Positions 20,493-57,722 of a stretch of 64,000 nt of DNA are shown here, piece after piece. Source of the stretch: Armatimonadota bacterium (lineage in GTDB: Bacteria; Armatimonadota; HRBIN16); assembly GCA_963677485.1 (NCBI GenBank), contig OY781964.1:4160001-4224000 (forward strand), written 5' to 3'. The notes beneath the pieces are model-generated. The model worked only from the letters and a program-made list of their open reading frames with translations. It did not search any database and was not told where the DNA came from. Position 1 is the first letter of the stretch; the number at the start of each line of letters is the position of its first letter. The translations under genes and the position numbers were made by a program.

Positions 20493-20522
20493 GAGTTCTC
20501 CTGTATTTATATCGGCTGCTTA

Positions 20523-20650
20523 TGTCCGGGGCGGTCTGTCAGTACGCTTGCGATGACTGCTGTTTATAGACCGCGCCGGTCTTGTTCCCGATACCAGTCT
20601 TTGGTGGCTGTCCGCCAGACCGGCGCGGTTAGGGAAAACCGCCCCGGACA
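20523..20650. repeat. REPIN-like inverted pair of palindromic REP units (GTCC type)
   Basis: TGTCCGGGGCGGT...ACCGCCCCGGACA outer inverted repeat, with inner ACCGCGCCGGTCT/AGACCGGCGCGGT. Confidence 0.6.
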
Positions 20651-20864
20651 TTGGCCACGCTTGCTGAAAACAAAATGCGAAAAGGACTTAGCCCATCTGA
20701 GTTACATTTAGGTAACGCACATTGGACCTGTCAATCTGCATGATCCTGTCGAGAGTGTAACACCGCAAGCCATAGGACGTCAACAAGCAGCCGAAAGAAG
20801 GTATTTGCCACATACTGCGGCGAATATATCCAATGGAAGTCACTTGCTTTGGGAGGGTTTCTGA

Positions 20865-24589: not shown

Positions 24590-24649
24590 GTCGACATCAT
24601 ACATTAAATCTGGAGGAAATCATCTATCATGAACCCGCAACCATTATTA

Positions 24650-26305
24650 ATATCTTACCAACCATATTTTGAACACGGTGTATAGAATATTCTGATATTA
24701 CGCACCACACAAAGCGTTAGGCACAACGATCTGGCGAATAGCAAGTGCTGCCATGATGATACGCTTGCCAAGTGCAGTGAGGTAGTATTTGTAGCGTTTA
24801 CCGCATTTTTTAACGAGCCGGAATACTCGGCATCGCTTGATGAAGTATGATATCTGAGAGCTGGACATCTGCGGTAAGGCTTTTTGAAGCATACGGTTTG
24901 TGATCCCGCTGATGCATCCCTCTCCGCGAGCAAGTGCAATGAGACATTCCAAATCCTTCTTGAGGAAAAGGTTGAATCCTCGATACGAGCGATGATCACG
25001 GGTGGTCGAGGTCGCGATTTTGATGATCTGATGTTCACCATCGCTGTTGTCATCAAGGGCGGAAAGAAAGTCAAGATATCTGTTGTTTGCAGATAATAAC
25101 AGTTCCCTCAATGGAGGAAGGCTGTAGATGGTCTTTTGCATAGGGGCGTATTTAATCTCAGTCGTCCCATCATGATGTTCTACCTCACGGTAGTGTTTAA
25201 ATTCAGAGACGTCATTCACAGTCGTCTCGATACGCAAGATTATCCCTTGCTTGTCATACATTTTGATAGAAGCCCATCCCATGTAGTGTTTGATGCGCGT
25301 GCCTTGTATGCGGCGATCGAACTTGTAGTCAGTGCCGATCTCAGCGAGTGTTCGCCCATCAAGTTTCTTACCAAGAAACATCGCGATAGACTCTGGCGTT
25401 ACCGTATGTATCGCTGTTTTGACTAGATTATCGTAGATGGCTTTGAGGTCTTCGGCGCGTTTGAACACGATGTCTGTAGCATATTCCACCTGCATTAGCG
25501 ACCAATGATATGAATTGTCAGCAAGCCGTATCACGGGGCAATACATTCTGGCAAATGCATCCAGCGCATGGTGCAGCTTATCAGCAGGAAAAGCGTCTGC
25601 CAGCCTCTGAGCACAGCTAAAGTCGTCGATTTTTACAAAGGCGTTGTCCAGTGGAGTGAAAACTACTCCCTCGGATTGAAGGCAATGCGCGAGATAATTG
25701 TGTCCATTACAATAGAATTGCAGACGGAAGGGCACCCAGGTCGGAACTCGTAGATAGCACAGTCCAAACTCTGCATCGATGAAATAGAAGTAGTAATGAA
25801 GACACTTGGTCTCCTTGATATTCAGCCGGGTTTTGTGGGTAATCTTGTCGTGCCACGGGGTGTATGCAGGACATTTTTCCAACACTGAGAATATGTGGAC
25901 GAGACCGGGGTGACACCCTCGACTACTAATGATCTCTTTGATGCGGTCTTCTTTTCGAAATGAAGAGGCACGGCGTATATACTCAATTTCAATGCTGTTG
26001 GTAACGGCAAGGCGTTCCGCATTGGCTTTGATCTCATCTCGTAGAGGTTCGGCAAATTCCTTAGGAAAGTCAAATAGCCTGATGTTGCGTTGATGAAGAT
26101 AGATGCCCATTCCGTCGCTATGACACCAGCCTGGGATTGTACCGGTGATAACTATGCGGTCGAAGCATGAATATACCCCAGCTATCTGCTTTGCATAGCG
26201 TTCTTGAAGTGATGTCATTCTGGGCAACCTCACGAAAGGGTGTTTGAATGTATATTACGTGGCGAATGCAATCATTCCTTTTTTGGTTGCGGCTAAGCCG
26301 CCTTA
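24650..26305 (-). mobile_element. 1656-bp insertion element with putative Rep_trans-like (rolling-circle) transposase
   Basis: Boundaries defined by the split SDR frame, with TTA at both junctions; visibly AT-richer than the flanks; terminal hairpin GCGGC-TAA-GCCGC at 26289-26301; single ORF. Confidence 0.85.
24698..26233 (-). CDS. Putative transposase/replication initiator with Rep_trans-like motifs and C-terminal winged helix
   Basis: QVEYATDIVF (cf. R.D.A.D), SIKMYDK...LRIETT (cf. Y.K...R.E), C-terminal ISYFIKRCRVFRLVKK.GKRYKYYLTALG (wHTH). Fills the insertion; probable start is ATG 26218. Confidence 0.65.
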   Translation of the reverse strand: MRLPRMTSLQERYAKQIAGVYSCFDRIVITGTIPGWCHSDGMGIYLHQRNIRLFDFPKEFAEPLRDEIKANAERLAVTNSIEIEYIRRASSFRKEDRIKEIISSRGCHPGLVHIFSVLEKCPAYTPWHDKITHKTRLNIKETKCLHYYFYFIDAEFGLCYLRVPTWVPFRLQFYCNGHNYLAHCLQSEGVVFTPLDNAFVKIDDFSCAQRLADAFPADKLHHALDAFARMYCPVIRLADNSYHWSLMQVEYATDIVFKRAEDLKAIYDNLVKTAIHTVTPESIAMFLGKKLDGRTLAEIGTDYKFDRRIQGTRIKHYMGWASIKMYDKQGIILRIETTVNDVSEFKHYREVEHHDGTTEIKYAPMQKTIYSLPPLRELLLSANNRYLDFLSALDDNSDGEHQIIKIATSTTRDHRSYRGFNLFLKKDLECLIALARGEGCISGITNRMLQKALPQMSSSQISYFIKRCRVFRLVKKCGKRYKYYLTALGKRIIMAALAIRQIVVPNALCGA

Positions 26306-27051
26306 GGTAAAACGGCGGTCGTCACCGGGTCAGCCCGGGGTATCGGCTACGGCATCGCGCTCAGGCTAGCCAAGGAAGGGGCGAACGTGGTCATCGCGGA
26401 CATTAATGCGGACCATGCGGCCGAATCGGCCCGCCAAATCGCTACCGAGACAGGCCGAAAGGCAATCGCCATCGCTTGCGATGTGACCGATCAGCAATCT
26501 GTGGTCACCATGATCACCAAAGCTGTGTCCGAACTGGGCAGCCTGGACATCATGGTCGCGAATGCGGGCGTCTGCCCGTTTGTGGAAATCATGGAGATGG
26601 ATGTCGAAACTTGGAAGAAGACGATTTACATCAACCTGACTGGCGCGTTCATCACCGCTCAGGCTGGCGCGAAGCAGATGGTGGCCCAGGGCAAAGGCGG
26701 TCGAATCATCTTCATCTCTTCGCTGGCTACCATAAGGGCTTCCAGTGCTCAGGCGGACTATGCGGCGTCGAAGTCGGGTGTGAAGATGCTGATGGCTACA
26801 ATGGCAACAGCGTTAGGCAAACAGGGCATCACCGTCAACGCCATCGCACCGGGTGTCATCTATACCGAAATGGGCGCGTTCCACTGGGATGTACCGGAAC
26901 ACAGGGCGGCCTTCGCGATAGAAAACCCGATCCCGCGGCTTGGGATGCCTTCGGACATCGCGAATGCGGCGGTGTTCCTGGCTCTGGACGAATCGGAATA
27001 CATCACCGGCAGCACCATCCGCGTGGACGGCGGCAGGGAGGCGATAGGGTA

Positions 27052-28095
27052 ATGAGAGCGAACCGTTCAGCATATGTGAAGTCACCGTGGCAATTTGAGC
27101 TGCGTGAGATGCCTGTGGGAAGTCCTGGCGTGGGCCAGATAGTGGTGCAGATCAAGGCCTGCGGTATCTGCGGCACCGATCTGCATACCGCAGACCGTAC
27201 CGCGTTGGACTGGCAAGCGTTCGGGCACGAGATGGCCGGTGTGGTGGTCGAAGTGGGCGAGGGCGTGAGCCGCTTTACGCTTGGCGACCGTGTGGCTCTC
27301 AACACAGCCGCTCCGTGCGGGAAGTGTCCGATCTGTCTACCCCAGCCCTACGGTAAAGGAAAACCGGAGCTTTGCCGAACACCCGTCTCGTATTGGGGCG
27401 GTCCGCAGATGGGTTTCGGCGAATATATCATCGCACCACATGAGAGTGCCGTTCTGATTCCCGATTCAATGCCATTCGACGTCGCCAGCATGGTGGAGCC
27501 GATGGGGGTCTCCATTGACATCGTGGAGACCGCGGATGTAGGCTGCGGCGACAATGTGCTGATCATTGGGGCCGGTCCGCTGGGGCTTGGTGCTATCACC
27601 GTGGCTAAGAACGCCGGAGCCCACTACATTGCCGTGGCCGCCAGATCGACATACACTGCTCGGGTCGAAGCCGCCCGCGCACTGGGAGCCGATGAGATCA
27701 TCGAGATCGACAAAACCCCGATCACTCAGGTGGATTTCGGGCCAAATCAGCCTGATAAGATCCTGGTCACCTCTCCGCCGCAGAGCATCTTGGATGCCAT
27801 CGCCATCGCCCCGTTTGGTGCGACCATTGCCTATATCGGGATTGCCTCAGGCCCGGGAGCCGTCATCTCATTTGATGCGGATGACTTCCACTACAGACGT
27901 CTCAGCCTCAAAGCGTCGTTCGCCTCGCCGGATATCCAATCGGCCAAGAGCTTGCGTATTTTGCAGGCTTACCCTGAGCTGGGACGTGAGCTGATATCGC
28001 ACCGCTTCAAGTTGGATGAGCTGGAGGCGATGATGAACCTGGCCCACACCGACAGGGGGCGGACGGTTAAGAAGATGGTGATGGTGAACGAATAG
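27052..28095 (+). CDS. Zinc-binding alcohol dehydrogenase family (sugar/polyol dehydrogenase)
   Basis: ACGICGTDLH, GHEMAG.V..VG..V, CGKCPIC...C, GAGPLG; TAATG coupling with the SDR stop codon. Confidence 0.92.
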   Translation: MRANRSAYVKSPWQFELREMPVGSPGVGQIVVQIKACGICGTDLHTADRTALDWQAFGHEMAGVVVEVGEGVSRFTLGDRVALNTAAPCGKCPICLPQPYGKGKPELCRTPVSYWGGPQMGFGEYIIAPHESAVLIPDSMPFDVASMVEPMGVSIDIVETADVGCGDNVLIIGAGPLGLGAITVAKNAGAHYIAVAARSTYTARVEAARALGADEIIEIDKTPITQVDFGPNQPDKILVTSPPQSILDAIAIAPFGATIAYIGIASGPGAVISFDADDFHYRRLSLKASFASPDIQSAKSLRILQAYPELGRELISHRFKLDELEAMMNLAHTDRGRTVKKMVMVNE

Positions 28096-28103
28096 GGCGC
28101 TTT

Positions 28104-28839
28104 GTGGCCTGCGATATACGCCGTCAGTCCCGTGTCGACGGGTTCCATCGCCCCAGGGGGCTCCATCACCCGTCGCTGATTAGGTGGCTGCCCGCGTCGC
28201 TTCGCTCCTGCGGGCGCTGGCGGAGGGTTCCCTGCGCCCGCTTGCGGGCTGAGACTGGGTAGACGCGCGGTGAGGGAACCCCGTTTTGGGACGCCAGTCC
28301 CGTGGGGTGACTAAACCCGCGGCAGCGTGGCTGGTAGCCTGCGATACACGCCGCCGGCATTTGTCGACGGGTTCCATCGCCCCAGGGGGCTTCATCACCC
28401 GTCGCTGATCAGATGGCTGCCTGCGTCGCTTCGCTCCAGCGGGCGCTGGCGGATGGCAAGTTGCGCCCGCTTGCGGGCTGCGAATGCCTAGACGCGCGGT
28501 GAGGGAACCCCGTTAGGGACGCCAGTCCCGTGGGGGTGACTAAACCCGCGGCAGCATGGCTGGTAGCCTGCGATCTACGCCGCCGGCATTTGTCGACGGG
28601 TTCCATCGCCCCAGGGGGGCTCCATCACCCGTCGCTGATCAGATGGCTGCCCGCGTCGCTTCGCTCCAGCGGGCGCAGGCGGATGGCCACCTGCGCCCGC
28701 TTGCGGGCTGAGACTGGGTAGACGCGCGGTGAGGGAACCCCGTTAGGGACGCCAGTCCCGTGGGGTGACTAAACCCGCGGTAGCGTGGCTGGTGGCCTTC
28801 GATCTACGCCGCCGGCCCCGTGTCGACGGATTCCATCGC
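28104..28839. repeat. Tandem array of ~3.2 copies of a ~229-bp GC-rich multi-hairpin unit
   Basis: GTCGACGG anchor at 28134, 28363, 28592 and 28822 (periods 229, 229, 230); copies are near identical apart from loop regions. Confidence 0.95.
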
Positions 28840-28887: not shown

Positions 28888-28924
28888 AAAAACAAAACGC
28901 CCTGCCGTTGTGACGGCAGGGCGT
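28888..28924 (-). terminator. Intrinsic terminator
   Basis: 12-bp stem ACGCCCTGCCGT/ACGGCAGGGCGT followed by TTTGTTTTT on the minus strand, just after the 28943 stop. Confidence 0.8.
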
Positions 28925-28942: not shown

Positions 28943-30706
28943 TTAGCGAACGGTGTTCGCGCCTGTCTGGCTGCTGCTCAGTTTGATCTGGGCATCCAGC
29001 GATTCGTCCATGTAATCCAAGGCCATGTAGGTATAACCCAGGTTGATGAATGGCCGGTTGTTGATCAGCATCTTCATCCCGTTGACTTCAACCATGTTGG
29101 CACCGGGCATGAACACTACGGAGTGCTTGCGGTCGTTGCTCACGGCGCAGACGGTGTTCTCTTTGGAGTACCACCACACCTTGCCATAACCATCGGCCTC
29201 AAAGGCGGCTCGGAAGGGCACATAGGCGGTTCCGTTGATCATCTTGACCATCACGTCAAAGGTGTCGTTGGACGCGGTGCTGTCCTCGCTGGTGTTGCGG
29301 GCGACTTGCATCGTCCTGACATGACTGCCCTTGGACACTTTGATGAATGACTTGGCTTCGGCAACCTTCACTTCGGCTTTTGGAGCGGTCTGCGCTTTTG
29401 CCACGACTGCCACCGGCTTGACGGCTACTGCTACGGGCTTGGGGGCAACCACAGCCGGCTTGGCTTCGACAACCTTAGCGACCACTGCCACCGGTTTGGC
29501 TACCACAGTCTGTGAGGTAGGCATACTGGGTGATGTGGAACGCACTGCGCCTTGTGCAGAGGCTTTGTCTGCCAACAGGCCAGGCACATTCAAAGCGCTT
29601 CCGGGCAATGCTGCGGTCATCAAACCATCAGACATCTGCTTGACTGCGGGTTTGACCTTCACAACTGCGGGTGCGACGACATTGACTGCCTTTTCAACAG
29701 CCGTAGCCACTGCAATCGCTTGTGATGGCTTTACCGAGTCAGGGGCGCTCATGCGTACTTGACCATCATAGCTGGTGCCCATGCTTAGCAGGCCGATACT
29801 GGGGTTGTTACTCACCGATATCGAAGGTATGCTGCTTGATCCGGGCTTGGGTGCAGCCACAGCCGACTTGATCACCGGTGCGGGTGATGCAGGGCGAATG
29901 ACTACGTTGGTGGGCATGATGCTGTTGAGAACACCCTCAGAACCGACTGGTGCAGGAAGGAAGCCCATCACGCTGGGTTCAGTTCCGGTGACCGGCGGGG
30001 TAGAGAGCATCGCACTGGAGGTAGACAGAAAGTCGTTGGTCATGGTGAAACCACCAGGGTTGTTCACCATCACGGTAATGGGGGCAGCCTTGTATACGTT
30101 CTGGCTGCTATCGACCAGCATCGCCTCAACCATATGTGAGCCGTTGCTGACGGTCGCTGTATCCCATGTGAACACATAGGGCGGCACATTCTTCAAGCTA
30201 CGGAACTTTTGGTCGATGTAGATGCTAACGTAGGGGTTTTTGACACCATCATTTACAGCCACATTGACTTCGACCTTACCTTGAACGTCTCCGTTTTGAG
30301 TGGGAGAGACGATGCGAATAGGCAATCCTACCACGCTGTCTCGATCCACAACTAAAAGCAGCTTGGAGGTGGTCAGGCGGCCATCAAGCTGGATGACGCG
30401 TATTTCTGCAGAGTGACGTCCTGGATTCAGATAGACGGGGTCAACCACGAAAGAGGCGACTCCTTTATCAACCGGCGTTTCTAAAACACGCTGAGCAAAC
30501 AGCTTACCTGCGATCCACAGTTCCACTCGTGAGACTGCGATGCCAGAATATTTCACAGATAGCTCAGACGCAGTAATGACTGGGCCAGAAAAGTCTTCGG
30601 CGTTGATGATTTTCATTTCCAGCGGATCTGCGGTGGCTGGTGTCATTAAGCAGGCACCGGTAGCCGCAATCAAACCGGCTGTCATGAGATACGATGCAAT
30701 CTTCAT
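28943..30706 (-). CDS. Secreted surface protein: Ig-like (Big_7) domains, Ala/Val/Lys/Pro-rich linker, copper amine oxidase N-terminal-like domain
   Basis: PPYVFTWDTATVSNGSH.VEA (Big_7); KPVAVVAK repeats; INGTAYVPFRAAFE...V.W....V (Cu_amine_oxidN1-like). Confidence 0.7.
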   Translation of the reverse strand: MKIASYLMTAGLIAATGACLMTPATADPLEMKIINAEDFSGPVITASELSVKYSGIAVSRVELWIAGKLFAQRVLETPVDKGVASFVVDPVYLNPGRHSAEIRVIQLDGRLTTSKLLLVVDRDSVVGLPIRIVSPTQNGDVQGKVEVNVAVNDGVKNPYVSIYIDQKFRSLKNVPPYVFTWDTATVSNGSHMVEAMLVDSSQNVYKAAPITVMVNNPGGFTMTNDFLSTSSAMLSTPPVTGTEPSVMGFLPAPVGSEGVLNSIMPTNVVIRPASPAPVIKSAVAAPKPGSSSIPSISVSNNPSIGLLSMGTSYDGQVRMSAPDSVKPSQAIAVATAVEKAVNVVAPAVVKVKPAVKQMSDGLMTAALPGSALNVPGLLADKASAQGAVRSTSPSMPTSQTVVAKPVAVVAKVVEAKPAVVAPKPVAVAVKPVAVVAKAQTAPKAEVKVAEAKSFIKVSKGSHVRTMQVARNTSEDSTASNDTFDVMVKMINGTAYVPFRAAFEADGYGKVWWYSKENTVCAVSNDRKHSVVFMPGANMVEVNGMKMLINNRPFINLGYTYMALDYMDESLDAQIKLSSSQTGANTVR

Positions 30707-41269: not shown

Positions 41270-41539
41270 ATGAACCGCCTCGGACGTGCGAGCCAAATCC
41301 CAGCGATGAGTATCATCTGGCTTATCCGCCGGGTGTATCAGCCCCTATCACGGCGTACACCGCCGAGTTGTCGTTTTTACCCAACTTGTTCTGAATATGC
41401 CGCACAAGCATTGAGCAGGTATGGGTTATGGCGAGGTACGTTCTTGACCATATATAGAATTGTGCGATGCAACCCGTGGAACCAGGGAGGCATAGACCCC
41501 GTCCCTGAGAAACCAGATTTTGCCCGAAGTAGAAGGTAG
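41270..41539 (+). CDS. yidD: Membrane protein insertion efficiency factor YidD
   Basis: CRFYPTCSEYA..AL..YG...G......RI.RCNPW..GG.DPVP. Confidence 0.95.
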   Translation: MNRLGRASQIPAMSIIWLIRRVYQPLSRRTPPSCRFYPTCSEYAAQALSRYGLWRGTFLTIYRIVRCNPWNQGGIDPVPEKPDFARSRR

Positions 41540-49713: not shown

Positions 49714-49782
49714 GAACCCGCGTATTTTACATAAGTAACCGCTTGAGATGGCACGGCAGCTCATACTGTAATTAATACTGTC

Positions 49783-49864
49783 GTAGGGGCGTCCCTTGTG
49801 GACGCCCTCATCGTTGGACATTCGACAGTTTTGGTTTTAGGGCGCCCACAAGGGACGCCCCTAC
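49783..49864. repeat. GTAG-family REPIN (inverted REP doublet)
   Basis: GTAGGGGCGTCCCTTGTGGACGCCCT...AGGGCGCCCACAAGGGACGCCCCTAC. Confidence 0.8.
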
Positions 49865-49949
49865 GACCAGTTACTTACAAACCTGCTGGAGCACTCTGCT
49901 TTTGCAGGCTTTTTCACTAGATATTGGACGAACCATAAGGAGAAACGGA

Positions 49950-50447
49950 ATGGCTGATACCGTTAAGGAACTCGTGTTTACCCGTGCGATCGCCGAAGCC
50001 AAAGGGTTTGGTCTGGAGGTATGCGAGCAAGACGCCAAGCGTCCATGGGGTGGATTCCTGAAATTCACTGAGGCCAGCCTTCCAGCCTTCACTGAGGCCT
50101 ACCTTCAGGGCGTAGAGGTGGACGGCGACTTCGGAAAACGCGACCCCAAGGTTCTGCTGGTGGCTCCCGGGGCCAGGCTCTCGCTGCAACTGCACCATCG
50201 CCGCAGTGAGCTCTGGAGGGTGCTGGACGGGCCTGTGACCATCGTCAGGGGCCATGATGAGGCGAACCTCTCTGAGCGCGTATATCAAAGCGGTGAAGCG
50301 ATCCACTTGTACTGCGGCGAAATCCACCGTTTGTGCGGCGGAGAGAACAACTGGGGCCGTGTGGCGGAGATATGGGAGCACAGCGATGCTTCCAACCCCA
50401 GCAACGAAGCCGACATCGTACGCCTGCAGGACGACTACGCTCGCTGA
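49950..50447 (+). CDS. Cupin-fold protein, mannose-6-phosphate isomerase type II C-terminal-like
   Basis: RPWGG, K.L.V.PG.RLSLQ.H.RR.E.W.V, HRL, E.DIVRLQDDY.R; AAGGAG RBS. Confidence 0.85.
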   Translation: MADTVKELVFTRAIAEAKGFGLEVCEQDAKRPWGGFLKFTEASLPAFTEAYLQGVEVDGDFGKRDPKVLLVAPGARLSLQLHHRRSELWRVLDGPVTIVRGHDEANLSERVYQSGEAIHLYCGEIHRLCGGENNWGRVAEIWEHSDASNPSNEADIVRLQDDYAR

Positions 50448-50508: not shown

Positions 50509-50625
50509 TGGGGTAACGGCTCAGCTGTGGATGGCTAGAATGGATATCGACCGCGCCGGTGTGGCAGATAGCCGAACCCGTCACACCTGGGCGGGCTTAT
50601 CCAACGCCCGCCGGAACGCGGATTC

Positions 50626-50650
50626 GTAGGGGCGTTTCGCGAAACGCCCT
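50626..50650 (+). repeat. Single GTAG-family REP
   Basis: GTAGGGGCGTTTCGCGAAACGCCCT. Confidence 0.7.
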
Positions 50651-50691
50651 GGGTGACTGTGCCCGTACCGGGACGCAGTCACCTAGGGCTA

Positions 50692-50995
50692 CCGAACCCG
50701 TCGCCATGTGCCTGTGGTATTGATCGCAGGTTATCAGCCACGCTGCTGCGGGTTTAGTCACCCCACGGGACTGTGTCCCTAAACGGGGTTACCTCACCGC
50801 GCGTCTAGGCATATGCAGCCCGCAAGCGGGCGCAGGTGGCCCTCAGTCCGCGCCCGCTGGAGCGAAGCGACGCGGGCAGCCATCTGATCAGCGACGGGTG
50901 ATGGAGCCCCCTGGGGCGATGGAACCCGTCGACGCGGCGCTGATCGGCTCATATCGAAGCCGATCAGCCCCTCATGCCACCGGTTTGGTCACCCA
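50692..50995 (-). repeat. Inverted copy, with degenerate flanking partial copies, of the 229-bp unit
   Basis: Reverse complement of 50722-50934 matches the 28.1-28.8 kb unit; GAACCCGTC recurs at about the unit period. Confidence 0.9.
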
Positions 50996-51045
50996 AAGAA
51001 CCTGCCCGTGCTGACACGGCAGCCCACGCTGTAACGGATACGACC

Positions 51046-51125
51046 GTAGGGCGTCCCTTGTGGGCGCCCTAATCGTTGTTCGTTCGAGAGTTCATGTATA
51101 AGGGCGCCCACAAGAGACGCCCTAC
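51046..51125. repeat. GTAG-family REPIN, homologous to 49783-49864
   Basis: GTAGGGCGTCCCTTGTGGGCGCCCT...AGGGCGCCCACAAGAGACGCCCTAC, with a related internal spacer. Confidence 0.8.
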
Positions 51126-51136
51126 GAACAGGTCGC

Positions 51137-56315: not shown

Positions 56316-57722
56316 ATGCATAATCCAGAATTTGCCGCAGTGGTGATGGCTGCGGGTAAGAGTACTCGGATGAAATCACGTCTACCAAAGCCGCTGCACC
56401 AACTGTGTGGTCAGAGTTTGCTGAGTTACATTCTGGAGGCTTGCCAGTCAGCGGGTGCCAGCCGCAAGGTGGTGATTGTAGGCCATGGGGCGGAGATGGT
56501 GAAAGAGGCGATGGGTGAAGGCCTGGACTACGCCCTGCAGGCAGAGCAAAAAGGCACCGGCCACGCGGTGATGATGACCCGTGGACACCTTCTGGATTTC
56601 CATGGTGACGTGCTTGTATTGCCTGGTGATGTTCCCCTGATCACTAGCGATGTGTTGGTGAATTTTATCGAGTATCACCGGCAGTCAGGGGCGATGGCCA
56701 CACTGTTGAGTGCTGTCTTGCCGCACGATGCCGGTAGCTATGGCCGCATCCTGCGCGACGAGGCCGATCATGTGCTGGGTATTGTGGAGGCCAAAGATGC
56801 CACACCCGAGCAGATGCAGGTCAGGGAAATCAACTCCTCTATCTACGTGTTCAACGGACCGCTTCTGTATGAGGCGCTTGGCTGCCTGAAGAACGACAAC
56901 GCTCAGGGTGAATACTACCTCACCGATGTGGTCGGCTGGATGCGTGAGCAGGGCCACAAGGTAGATGCCTGGATAAGCCCGGACTGGGAAGTGATACTGG
57001 GTATGAATACCCGTGTGGAGCTGGCTGATCTGACCGCGAAACTGCAGAAGCGCATATTGAACAAGCTAATGCTGGACGGCGTAACCATTGTGGACCCGGC
57101 GAACACATACATCGACGCGAATGTGAAGATCGGTGAAGACACCATCATTCAGCCTGGCTGCCATATTCACGGTCATACGGTGATTGGTGAGCTTTGCGTG
57201 ATCGGACCGAATACTCGGCTGACGGATGCCGCAATCGCTGCCAACTGTGAAGTCGCTTTTTCGCAGATCAACGGCAGCGAACTGAAGCAGGACGTGACCG
57301 TAGGGCCGTTTGCGAATATCCGCCCCAACTGCGTGGTGGGCGCCAAGTGCAAAATCGGCGACTTTGTGGAGTTGAAGGGAACCGTGCTTGAGGACCACGT
57401 CTCAGCGGGTCACCTCAGCTATCTAGGTGATGCCGAGGTTGGCGCAGGCACCAATATCGGCGCAGGAACCATCACCTGCAACTACGATGGTGTACGTAAA
57501 CACCGCACGCGCATCGGCAAGCGGTGCTTCGTGGGCTCCCATAGCACTCTGGTAGCGCCTGTCCAATTGGGTAACGAAGTCATCACAGCCGCCGGCAGTA
57601 CGATCACGGAGGACGTGGCCGACAGCACTCTGGCCATTGGACGCTCTCGGCAGCTCAACAAAGAGGGCTGGGTGGCGCTCAACCGTGAGAAACACTTCAA
57701 AAAGGAGCCACACCAAGCGTGA
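56316..57722 (+). CDS. glmU: Bifunctional UDP-GlcNAc pyrophosphorylase / glucosamine-1-phosphate acetyltransferase
   Basis: AAGK.TRMKS..PK.LH, GTGHAV, GDVPL, YGRI, N.NAQGEYYLTD, HLSYLGDA, NIGAGTITCNYDG. Confidence 0.97.
   Translation: MHNPEFAAVVMAAGKSTRMKSRLPKPLHQLCGQSLLSYILEACQSAGASRKVVIVGHGAEMVKEAMGEGLDYALQAEQKGTGHAVMMTRGHLLDFHGDVLVLPGDVPLITSDVLVNFIEYHRQSGAMATLLSAVLPHDAGSYGRILRDEADHVLGIVEAKDATPEQMQVREINSSIYVFNGPLLYEALGCLKNDNAQGEYYLTDVVGWMREQGHKVDAWISPDWEVILGMNTRVELADLTAKLQKRILNKLMLDGVTIVDPANTYIDANVKIGEDTIIQPGCHIHGHTVIGELCVIGPNTRLTDAAIAANCEVAFSQINGSELKQDVTVGPFANIRPNCVVGAKCKIGDFVELKGTVLEDHVSAGHLSYLGDAEVGAGTNIGAGTITCNYDGVRKHRTRIGKRCFVGSHSTLVAPVQLGNEVITAAGSTITEDVADSTLAIGRSRQLNKEGWVALNREKHFKKEPHQA

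Follow-up and report, generated by a model that had tools for sequence, protein, structure and literature searches.

A BIME-2/REPIN-like 229-bp repeat unit in Armatimonadota and its probable link to a Y1 transposase of subclass 1.2

Introduction

The canonical GTAG REP is an imperfect palindrome of about 20-60 bp, intergenic and present in many copies, which carries a GT[AG]G foot and is paired with a class-2 enzyme, TnpA-REP or RAYT, bearing the motif Y-x-x-x-NP. For Escherichia coli, the account of BIME-2 elements and atypical BIMEs (Ton-Hoang 2012, PMC3333891) gives alternating inverted palindromes separated by two linkers, tandem copies that are well conserved within each locus, a copy number that varies at one and the same site, and arrays on the flanks of a single Y1 gene. 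REPIN clusters of Pseudomonas are described as tandem doublets with flanks, reaching four units plus one extra REP and more than 700 bp, with clusters adjoining the transposase gene (Bertels and Rainey 2011, PMC3116915), and a later review restricts REPINs to the RAYTs of Groups 2 and 3 (10.1101/2021.07.10.451892). A further arrangement is that of the TIRtrons, in which the inverted repeats at the TIRYT genes can form dispersed families, Acidobacteria included (Di Nocera 2013, PMC3733652); the 26 described TIRYTs were placed by Quentin in subclasses 2.1, 2.2 and 2.5 (PMC6006769).

Within class 1, subclass 1.2 is reported from about 4% of species, is described as neither insertion sequences nor REP-associated, and is presented with its substrate unreported; Table 1 of that article enters it as 'REP: no' (Quentin 2018, PMC6006769). 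For the IS200 Group 3 proteins, abundant flanking 16-mers and no duplicates are given (Bertels 2017, PMC5581495). From these descriptions we infer that Group 3 and subclass 1.2 may be the same proteins. Here we describe a 229-bp unit found as a tandem array in a 64-kb stretch of Armatimonadota DNA, hereafter the window, and compare it with these systems.

Results

A tandem array of a multi-hairpin unit

Tandem Repeats Finder located the sole tandem array of the window at 28107-28839, with a period of 229, 3.2 copies and 90% matches, confirming the head-to-tail arrangement proposed in the first-pass annotation. The array occupies the gap from the stop codon of a zinc-dehydrogenase gene to the terminator of the convergent gene 28943-30706. 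Every stem named in that annotation could be found in the sequence, and its view that the unit holds no conserved reading frame is borne out by the longest stop-free runs, which are of 110 codons in one frame and at most 80 in the other five, none of them conserved. The copies diverge from each other by 5-9%, and the clustering of these differences, also noticed earlier, is accounted for chiefly by three short hot spots and by a linker of about 40 nt. An assembly artefact is hardly credible, given this divergence and the presence of similar arrays in an independent assembly. Nor does the array look like a CRISPR, since its conserved core is of 195 nt and its linkers are mutually related; the window has 83 ORFs of at least 120 aa, and a scan of 29 of its proteins revealed no Cas family.

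Each unit consists, in this order, of a left palindrome, the hairpins B1 and B2, a right palindrome and a variable linker D. The features of the array, together with the second locus and the IS-like gene discussed below, are as follows.

24698..26233, minus strand: IS-like gene of 511 aa, not part of the element, with a predicted TBP/Rep_trans-like N-terminal fold and a predicted winged-helix C-terminus
28104..28135, plus strand: leading partial linker D, beginning 9 nt past the upstream zinc-dehydrogenase stop codon
28136..28179, minus strand: left palindrome of unit 1 (REP-like), with a 5' TCAG foot, an 8-bp stem, a symmetric internal loop and a C/G-run cap
28190..28215, unstranded: central hairpin B1 of unit 1, with a 6-bp stem, the sole helix with repeated compensatory change
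28236..28249, unstranded: central hairpin B2 of unit 1, with a 6-bp stem and a TT loop
28259..28321, plus strand: right palindrome of unit 1, inverted paralogue of the left one, with an (N)TAG foot and an optional inner hairpin
28322..28364, plus strand: linker D between units 1 and 2, an imperfect hairpin, highly variable among loci
28365..28550, unstranded: core of unit 2 (left palindrome 28365-28408, minus; B1 28419-28444; B2 28465-28478; right palindrome 28488-28550, plus)
28551..28593, plus strand: linker D between units 2 and 3
28594..28779, unstranded: core of unit 3 (left palindrome 28594-28638, minus; B1 28649-28674; B2 28695-28708; right palindrome 28718-28779, plus)
28780..28839, plus strand: terminal linker D with a truncated left palindrome; this is the '0.2' copy and forms a direct terminal redundancy
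28897..28924, minus strand: intrinsic-terminator-like hairpin of gene 28943-30706, a host feature that bounds the array and is kept at the orthologous site
50682-50994, minus strand: second locus, one full unit with partial units on both sides, amid other repeats (left palindrome 50888-50931, right palindrome 50747-50808, perfect-hairpin linker D 50939-50968)

The two palindromes measure 44 nt (left) and 63 nt (right). In a global alignment of the minus-strand left arm with a natural short form of the plus-strand right arm, none of 3000 shuffles scored as high (29 of 3000 with the full form); in the direct orientation 1264 of 3000 did so. This identifies the arms as inverted paralogues. A local alignment of the arms was not significant (186 of 2000 shuffles), because the inner hairpin of the right arm interrupts the likeness; this hairpin is absent from five copies, and there the arms are nearly colinear.

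The properties of the unit were scored on 49 aligned cores: of 68 starts, 56 reach the right end, 51 are of canonical length and two chimeras were left out. The foot of the left arm reads TCAG in 43 of the 48 scored, TTAG in four and CCAG in one, while in the right arm the TAG is conserved and GTAG occurs in just 2 of 49. Cores are followed by a linker and a partial left arm in 35 of 49 cases (control 3.8%) and preceded by a linker in 37 of 49 (control 3.2%); loci thus usually start with the linker and end with the linker plus a truncated left arm, giving arrays of n+0.2 copies. The ends of the unit are direct redundancies of linker and partial arm; a MITE of the Correia or ERIC type would have terminal inverted repeats and a target-site duplication. 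Units also recombine by module, with modules shuffled or deleted among copies and other hairpins swapped in, and a tree of the 49 cores was mostly unresolved.

Within the window, a 17-nt core motif had seven matches at up to three mismatches, against 0.20 expected; one of them, at 41463, lies inside a reading frame and is apparently a chance match. The unit at the second locus is 83-87% identical to the array copies. GTAG-footed hairpins are found at 49749-49879, 51012-51131, 50626-50649 and 57300-57325, two of them being inverted doublets, and row 122 in supplement 2 of PMC6006769 enters a GTAG hairpin that resembles them under subclass 2.4. No enzyme for these hairpins was found in the window or in the DNA fetched from other genomes; a cupin ORF between the GTAG doublets (49902-50447) was considered and set aside as a mannose-6-phosphate-isomerase-type protein. 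Another small repeat family occurs at 20521-20659 and 50550-50564 and in eight loci of the sister genome described below, besides the orthologous one, where it is often joined to the ends of 229-bp arrays. A blastn search of plasmid and phage collections with the unit returned nothing beyond matches of 21-39 nt; two of these were inspected, one within a CDS and the other between traA and a small gene, and were treated as chance.

A dispersed family in a sister genome

An exact-pattern scan of GTDB genomes gave 65 loci, 42 of them on a single 5.32-Mb chromosome, OW818647.1. This is the genome of a sister species, about 85% identical to that of the window and probably also of Armatimonadota; one of its loci matches the window from 19.3 to 34.2 kb at 85-93%. 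Among named proteins, the best relatives of the window's IF-3 come mostly from Armatimonadota, with 59-66% identity. In 452 kb of merged sequence we counted 64 unit starts, partial and variant arms included. These form at least 45 clusters, of which 31 have one start, 11 have two, 2 have three and 1 has four. The cluster count is a lower bound, since the fetched DNA comprises at most 6 kb around a copy, or 8.5% of the chromosome, and copies without the exact pattern are seen only within that distance of a match. The clusters are mostly intergenic, 9 of 47 being flagged as overlapping an ORF by crude ORF calling. No pattern match falls in 3.52-5.32 Mb, a third of the chromosome, and the largest cluster-free gap is of 2.0 Mb.

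The orthologous site in the sister genome holds 1.2 copies, against 3.2 in the window, and the centre of its unit is replaced by a GTAG-type hairpin. Copies within one array are 93.8% alike (16 pairs) and distant copies 89.6% (956 pairs), the pairs not being independent. The number of clusters and the arrays together indicate a dispersed repeat family with local amplification; the alternative entertained in the first-pass annotation, a local duplication confined to two loci, fails.

The remaining 23 loci of the scan come from other genomes and in none of them is the 229-bp unit present. Inspected by eye, eight hold related palindromes (seven Acidobacteriaceae and one Chthoniobacteraceae) and 15 look like chance. 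The Acidobacteriaceae loci (L004, L014, L015, L039, L042, L064 and L065) contain intergenic doublets with a related cap and TAG-footed hairpins, and no Y1 gene was found in their fetched flanks.

In size, intergenic position and number of copies the palindromes agree with canonical REPs, from which they depart in the foot, which is not GT[AG]G. The architecture is that of BIME-2 and REPIN elements, with related palindromes in inverted order, linkers between them, tandem copies that resemble each other within a locus, and a number of copies that varies at orthologous sites. All the BIME-2 traits listed above for E. coli recur in the unit and its sister-genome loci, as do the tandem doublets with flanks and the clusters adjoining a transposase gene described for Pseudomonas (PMC3333891; PMC3116915). 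Relative to BIME-2 as described, the palindromes of the unit are larger, at 44 and 63 nt, and have nested caps, one linker contains a further two hairpins, a TCAG/(N)TAG foot stands in place of GTAG, and the candidate enzyme presented below is of class 1 (subclass 1.2) rather than class 2 (PMC3333891). The earlier annotation had named a known REP, BIME or MITE family as a possible outcome; the architecture is indeed of the REP/BIME kind, and we found no catalogued family that contains the unit. Motif look-ups in the supplements of PMC6006769 gave no listing of the unit's motifs, and in the literature outside subscription journals we found no description of the 229-bp family or of repeats at subclass-1.2 genes. 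Taken as a whole, this evidence makes it very probable that the 229-bp unit is a BIME/REPIN-like non-autonomous DNA repeat.

Folding and covariation of the unit

The first-pass annotation had proposed either a structured ncRNA or a non-autonomous single-stranded DNA mobile element under selection for its fold, so that a functional RNA (a multi-copy ncRNA, a ribozyme-like RNA or a viroid-like circle) has to be weighed against a DNA repeat. The many stems are in keeping with an RNA, and the whole unit folds modestly better than shuffled sequences, with z of -1.3 to -4.6 as RNA and -0.8 to -3.3 as DNA; individual copies have different best folds. The structure drawn in that annotation has no compensated pair among 37 across the 49 copies. 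Its central and long-range stems in particular show no compensatory change, which is found instead in a competing local hairpin. A long rod joining both arms, which appears in several minimum-energy folds because the arms are inverted paralogues, was rejected as it shows no compensation.

A model of local hairpins gave 14 compensated cells, with two-sided change in 3 of 42 pairs, a result that none of 500 shuffles equalled; 15 of the 42 pairs never vary, the test has little power, and the scan pattern fixes the columns of the left arm. Eleven of the 14 cells are a single C-G to T-A change, eight of these in the arrays that flank the Y1 gene, and the change represents one or two events. In five copies the right arm's inner hairpin shows a change from G-C to C-G. 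The covariation term of RNAalifold was -0.01, and linker D showed no advantage of own over cross pairings (p 0.08-0.66).

At the gathering score, the only Rfam match in the window was one tRNA, and relaxing the threshold to an E of 5 brought up nothing credible within the array. No promoter-like site was found at the array. Among co-directional gene pairs, the clusters are in sense orientation in 17 cases and antisense in 9 (p 0.17, on crude ORF calls), the remaining contexts being 16 convergent and 5 divergent; orientation relative to GC skew is likewise unbiased (27 of 47, p 0.38), and counts of G-T versus A-C single out neither strand as the folding strand. The hairpins are thus probably maintained, and none of these results favours a single RNA fold. 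Together with the shuffling and deletion of modules among copies, these results make a functional structured RNA improbable. Of the two proposals, the dedicated ncRNA is thus not upheld, and the mobile element stands in the form of a non-autonomous, hairpin-built repeat that is probably handled as single-stranded DNA.

A Y1 gene flanked by arrays

In one locus of the sister genome (L008), unit arrays lie 60 nt upstream and about 14 nt downstream of a 144-codon HUH/Y1 gene (product P0121), and a four-unit array is situated a further 4 kb or so upstream. Three tandem paralogous genes for small membrane proteins (L008 3330-5550, minus strand) separate this array from those flanking the gene. The P0121 protein, of 144 aa, matches Pfam Y1_Tnp at 2e-17 and carries DHVH (H54-V-H56), W91-Q92, Y111, Q115 and H118-H119, the last three forming the motif Y-x-x-x-Q-x-x-HH. 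By these sequence motifs, and not by the Quentin profiles, it is assigned to TnpA-Y1 subclass 1.2 (IS200-like); it shares with that subclass, as published, DHVH, WQ, Y-x-x-x-Q-x-x-HH and a length of about 148 aa, perhaps also a low copy number, and is distinguished from it by the genome-wide repeat on its flanks and by a degenerate C-terminal tail (PMC6006769). In 8 of 10 aligned proteins the distal part of this tail is conserved; P0121 and P0122 have other sequence in its place, and P0121 may be inactive.

P0121 is unlike the RAYTs of Pseudomonas, as it scores 14.4 bits on the NCBIfam RAYT model NF047646, whose cut-off is 80, and in place of the class-2 Y-x-x-x-NP it has the motif given above. 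Neither does it conform to an IS200/IS605 element of subclass 1.1: its score on the IS200 equivalog NF033573 is 47.7 bits (cut-off 55), a single copy was seen in the 452 kb fetched, its protein cluster has one member on one contig, and arrays take the place of an adjoining tnpB. The locus has the repeat-flanked Y1 gene of a REPtron, as seen in the sister genome, that of the window being covered over 64 kb. It also resembles the TIRtrons in that the Y1 gene is flanked by inverted repeats that are not GTAG; the described TIRYTs are of other subclasses (2.1, 2.2 and 2.5), and some overlap between their repeats (PMC3733652) and the unit family may exist.

Thirteen of the 42 other clusters lie within 300 kb of the Y1 gene, against 4.7 expected, and none in the 2.0-Mb arc, a crowding that is confounded with a switch in GC skew at about 2.4 Mb. 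Clustering of REPs near their tnpA is reported for Marinomonas (PMC8266576). No Y1 gene is present in the window. P0121 has its nearest relative elsewhere at 56% identity, and the source genome of the window may therefore have lost the gene; some E. coli strains are described as having lost tnpA-REP while keeping their BIMEs (PMC3333891).

From this gene context in the sister genome, we consider it likely that an enzyme of subclass 1.2 spread the unit. A different enzyme might have done so, for example a class-2 TnpA-REP serving the GTAG hairpins, with the subclass-1.2 gene merely sitting in a repeat hot spot. GTAG-footed doublets adjoin the second locus and are found inside some units, GTAG hairpins are enriched near units (10 of 32 lie within 500 bp of one, the expectation being about 14%), one resembles a hairpin entered under subclass 2.4 (PMC6006769 supplement 2, row 122), and the sequence covered is a minority of both genomes. 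We regard this explanation as unlikely, because among 3622 stop-to-stop segments of the fetched DNA and the window P0121 was the sole Y1 match and the class-2 motif did not occur, because arrays abut the subclass-1.2 gene at both ends, and because protein search alone led to a 1.2-like gene of another phylum whose flanks carry a homologous foot and stem.

Repeats at other genes of subclass 1.2

This last gene belongs to Persicobacter and is flanked at each end by a TAG-footed palindrome with homology to the left arm of the unit (1 of 3000 shuffles). In a Chthoniobacteraceae MAG, at a locus that was found through the repeat itself, related doublets lie on both sides of the gene, the similarity to the arms being weak (100 of 3000 shuffles). 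Two genes of Bernardetia are accompanied by AT-rich inverted repeats that are unrelated in sequence to the unit (L069 772-952; L070 486-582 and 1092-1164), in one case upstream only and in the other on both sides, which suggests enzyme-specific types of repeat. Flanking repeats are therefore present at all five subclass-1.2-like genes examined, P0121 included, and on both sides in four of the five; in two of the four further genes they are related in sequence to the unit. The published 'no REP' trait of the subclass does not hold for these genes. Plasmid searches yielded just three subclass-1.2-like genes.

The 511-aa gene near the array

The first-pass annotation had pointed to a gene about 1.8 kb from the array as a candidate rolling-circle enzyme, of which the unit would be the non-autonomous partner. 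The protein, of 511 aa, has at least 7998 homologues, is annotated elsewhere as a MarR regulator, and belongs to no Pfam or NCBIfam family and to unnamed Atlas clusters only. Its model has a TBP-like fold at Z 9.1, and its best Foldseek match is the rolling-circle initiator 4CIJ (probability 0.97, E 2e-3, with a TM of only 0.19/0.32). This Rep_trans-like match and the predicted winged-helix C-terminus make the earlier guess at the fold a reasonable one. As the enzyme of the unit, the gene does not stand: it is missing from the orthologous site, where the unit persists, tblastn gave zero matches in any fetched locus, and a comparison of the window with itself revealed no sequence common to gene and unit. 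A partnership between the two is thus very improbable, the weak structural match notwithstanding.

Judged by its modelled structure, the gene is possibly an undescribed mobile element of the rolling-circle type. At the orthologous site both this gene and a neighbouring oxidoreductase gene are absent. The start of the short-chain dehydrogenase at 26387-27052 (plus strand) seems displaced by the IS-like insertion when compared with its orthologue in the sister genome (L009), and a sequence resembling that start occurs near 24630.

Discussion

The explanation that accounts best for these observations, and that we hold to be probable as a whole, is a BIME-2/REPIN-like unit spread and amplified by a Y1 enzyme of subclass 1.2. 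By analogy, the unit would work like the BIME-2/REPIN cluster of a REPtron system, without being a canonical GTAG REP and with a likely enzyme that is not a RAYT.

The mechanism, namely the guide foot, the phosphotyrosine nick, strand transfer and nick-primed amplification, is carried over from work on TnpA-REP and IS608. In single-stranded DNA the palindromes of the unit would fold, and the Y1 enzyme could bind the hairpin, take the TCAG/(N)TAG foot as a guide, and nick nearby with formation of a 5'-phosphotyrosine link. Strand transfer would then allow units to be excised and reinserted at other intergenic sites, often into existing repeats. Either copying primed by the nick, or unequal exchange involving the direct repeats at the ends (the linker and the start of the left palindrome), would produce head-to-tail arrays of n+0.2 copies. 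Any role as RNA would be the passive one in 3'-UTRs that is known for REPs.

The rolling-circle-like growth of the array suggested in the first-pass annotation agrees with the published BIME model (PMC3333891). For this step, recombination or slippage by the host between the terminal direct repeats, with no transposase involved, is a serious contender, somewhat short of an even chance, and is compatible with the preferred explanation for dispersal. Of 49 cores, 35 have the terminal redundancy, and the 64 kb seen of the window's genome contain no known Y1 gene. In the array, copies 1 and 3 are 94.8% alike as against 91.2% for copies 1 and 2, a pattern more suggestive of conversion or crossing-over than of a single clean rolling-circle event. 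Against host recombination, the largest array group of the sister genome surrounds the Y1 gene, and TnpA-REP is reported to make tandem BIMEs in vitro (PMC3333891).

Taken alone, an array of this kind is an ordinary outcome of REP/BIME biology; the added value lies in the link to an enzyme. We lean towards the view that, within the IS200 class, subclass 1.2 forms a lineage of domesticated transposases that has been overlooked. It would keep its own genome-wide populations of large palindrome doublets with a TAG foot in Armatimonadota, Verrucomicrobiota and Bacteroidota, and probably also in Acidobacteriota, whose repeats were found without a subclass-1.2 gene beside them; the 229-bp unit would be its mobile, tandemly amplified substrate. 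Subclass 1.2 thereby gains a putative substrate, a sequence that may serve as the guide, and a locus of the REPtron type, and with these in hand its function becomes testable with the existing cleavage assay. If this reading of the subclass is true, it would represent a REP-type domestication separate from the RAYT clade, or an intermediate between IS200 ends and REPINs, and it would bear on the question of whether the domestication of transposases by palindromic repeats took place once or several times.
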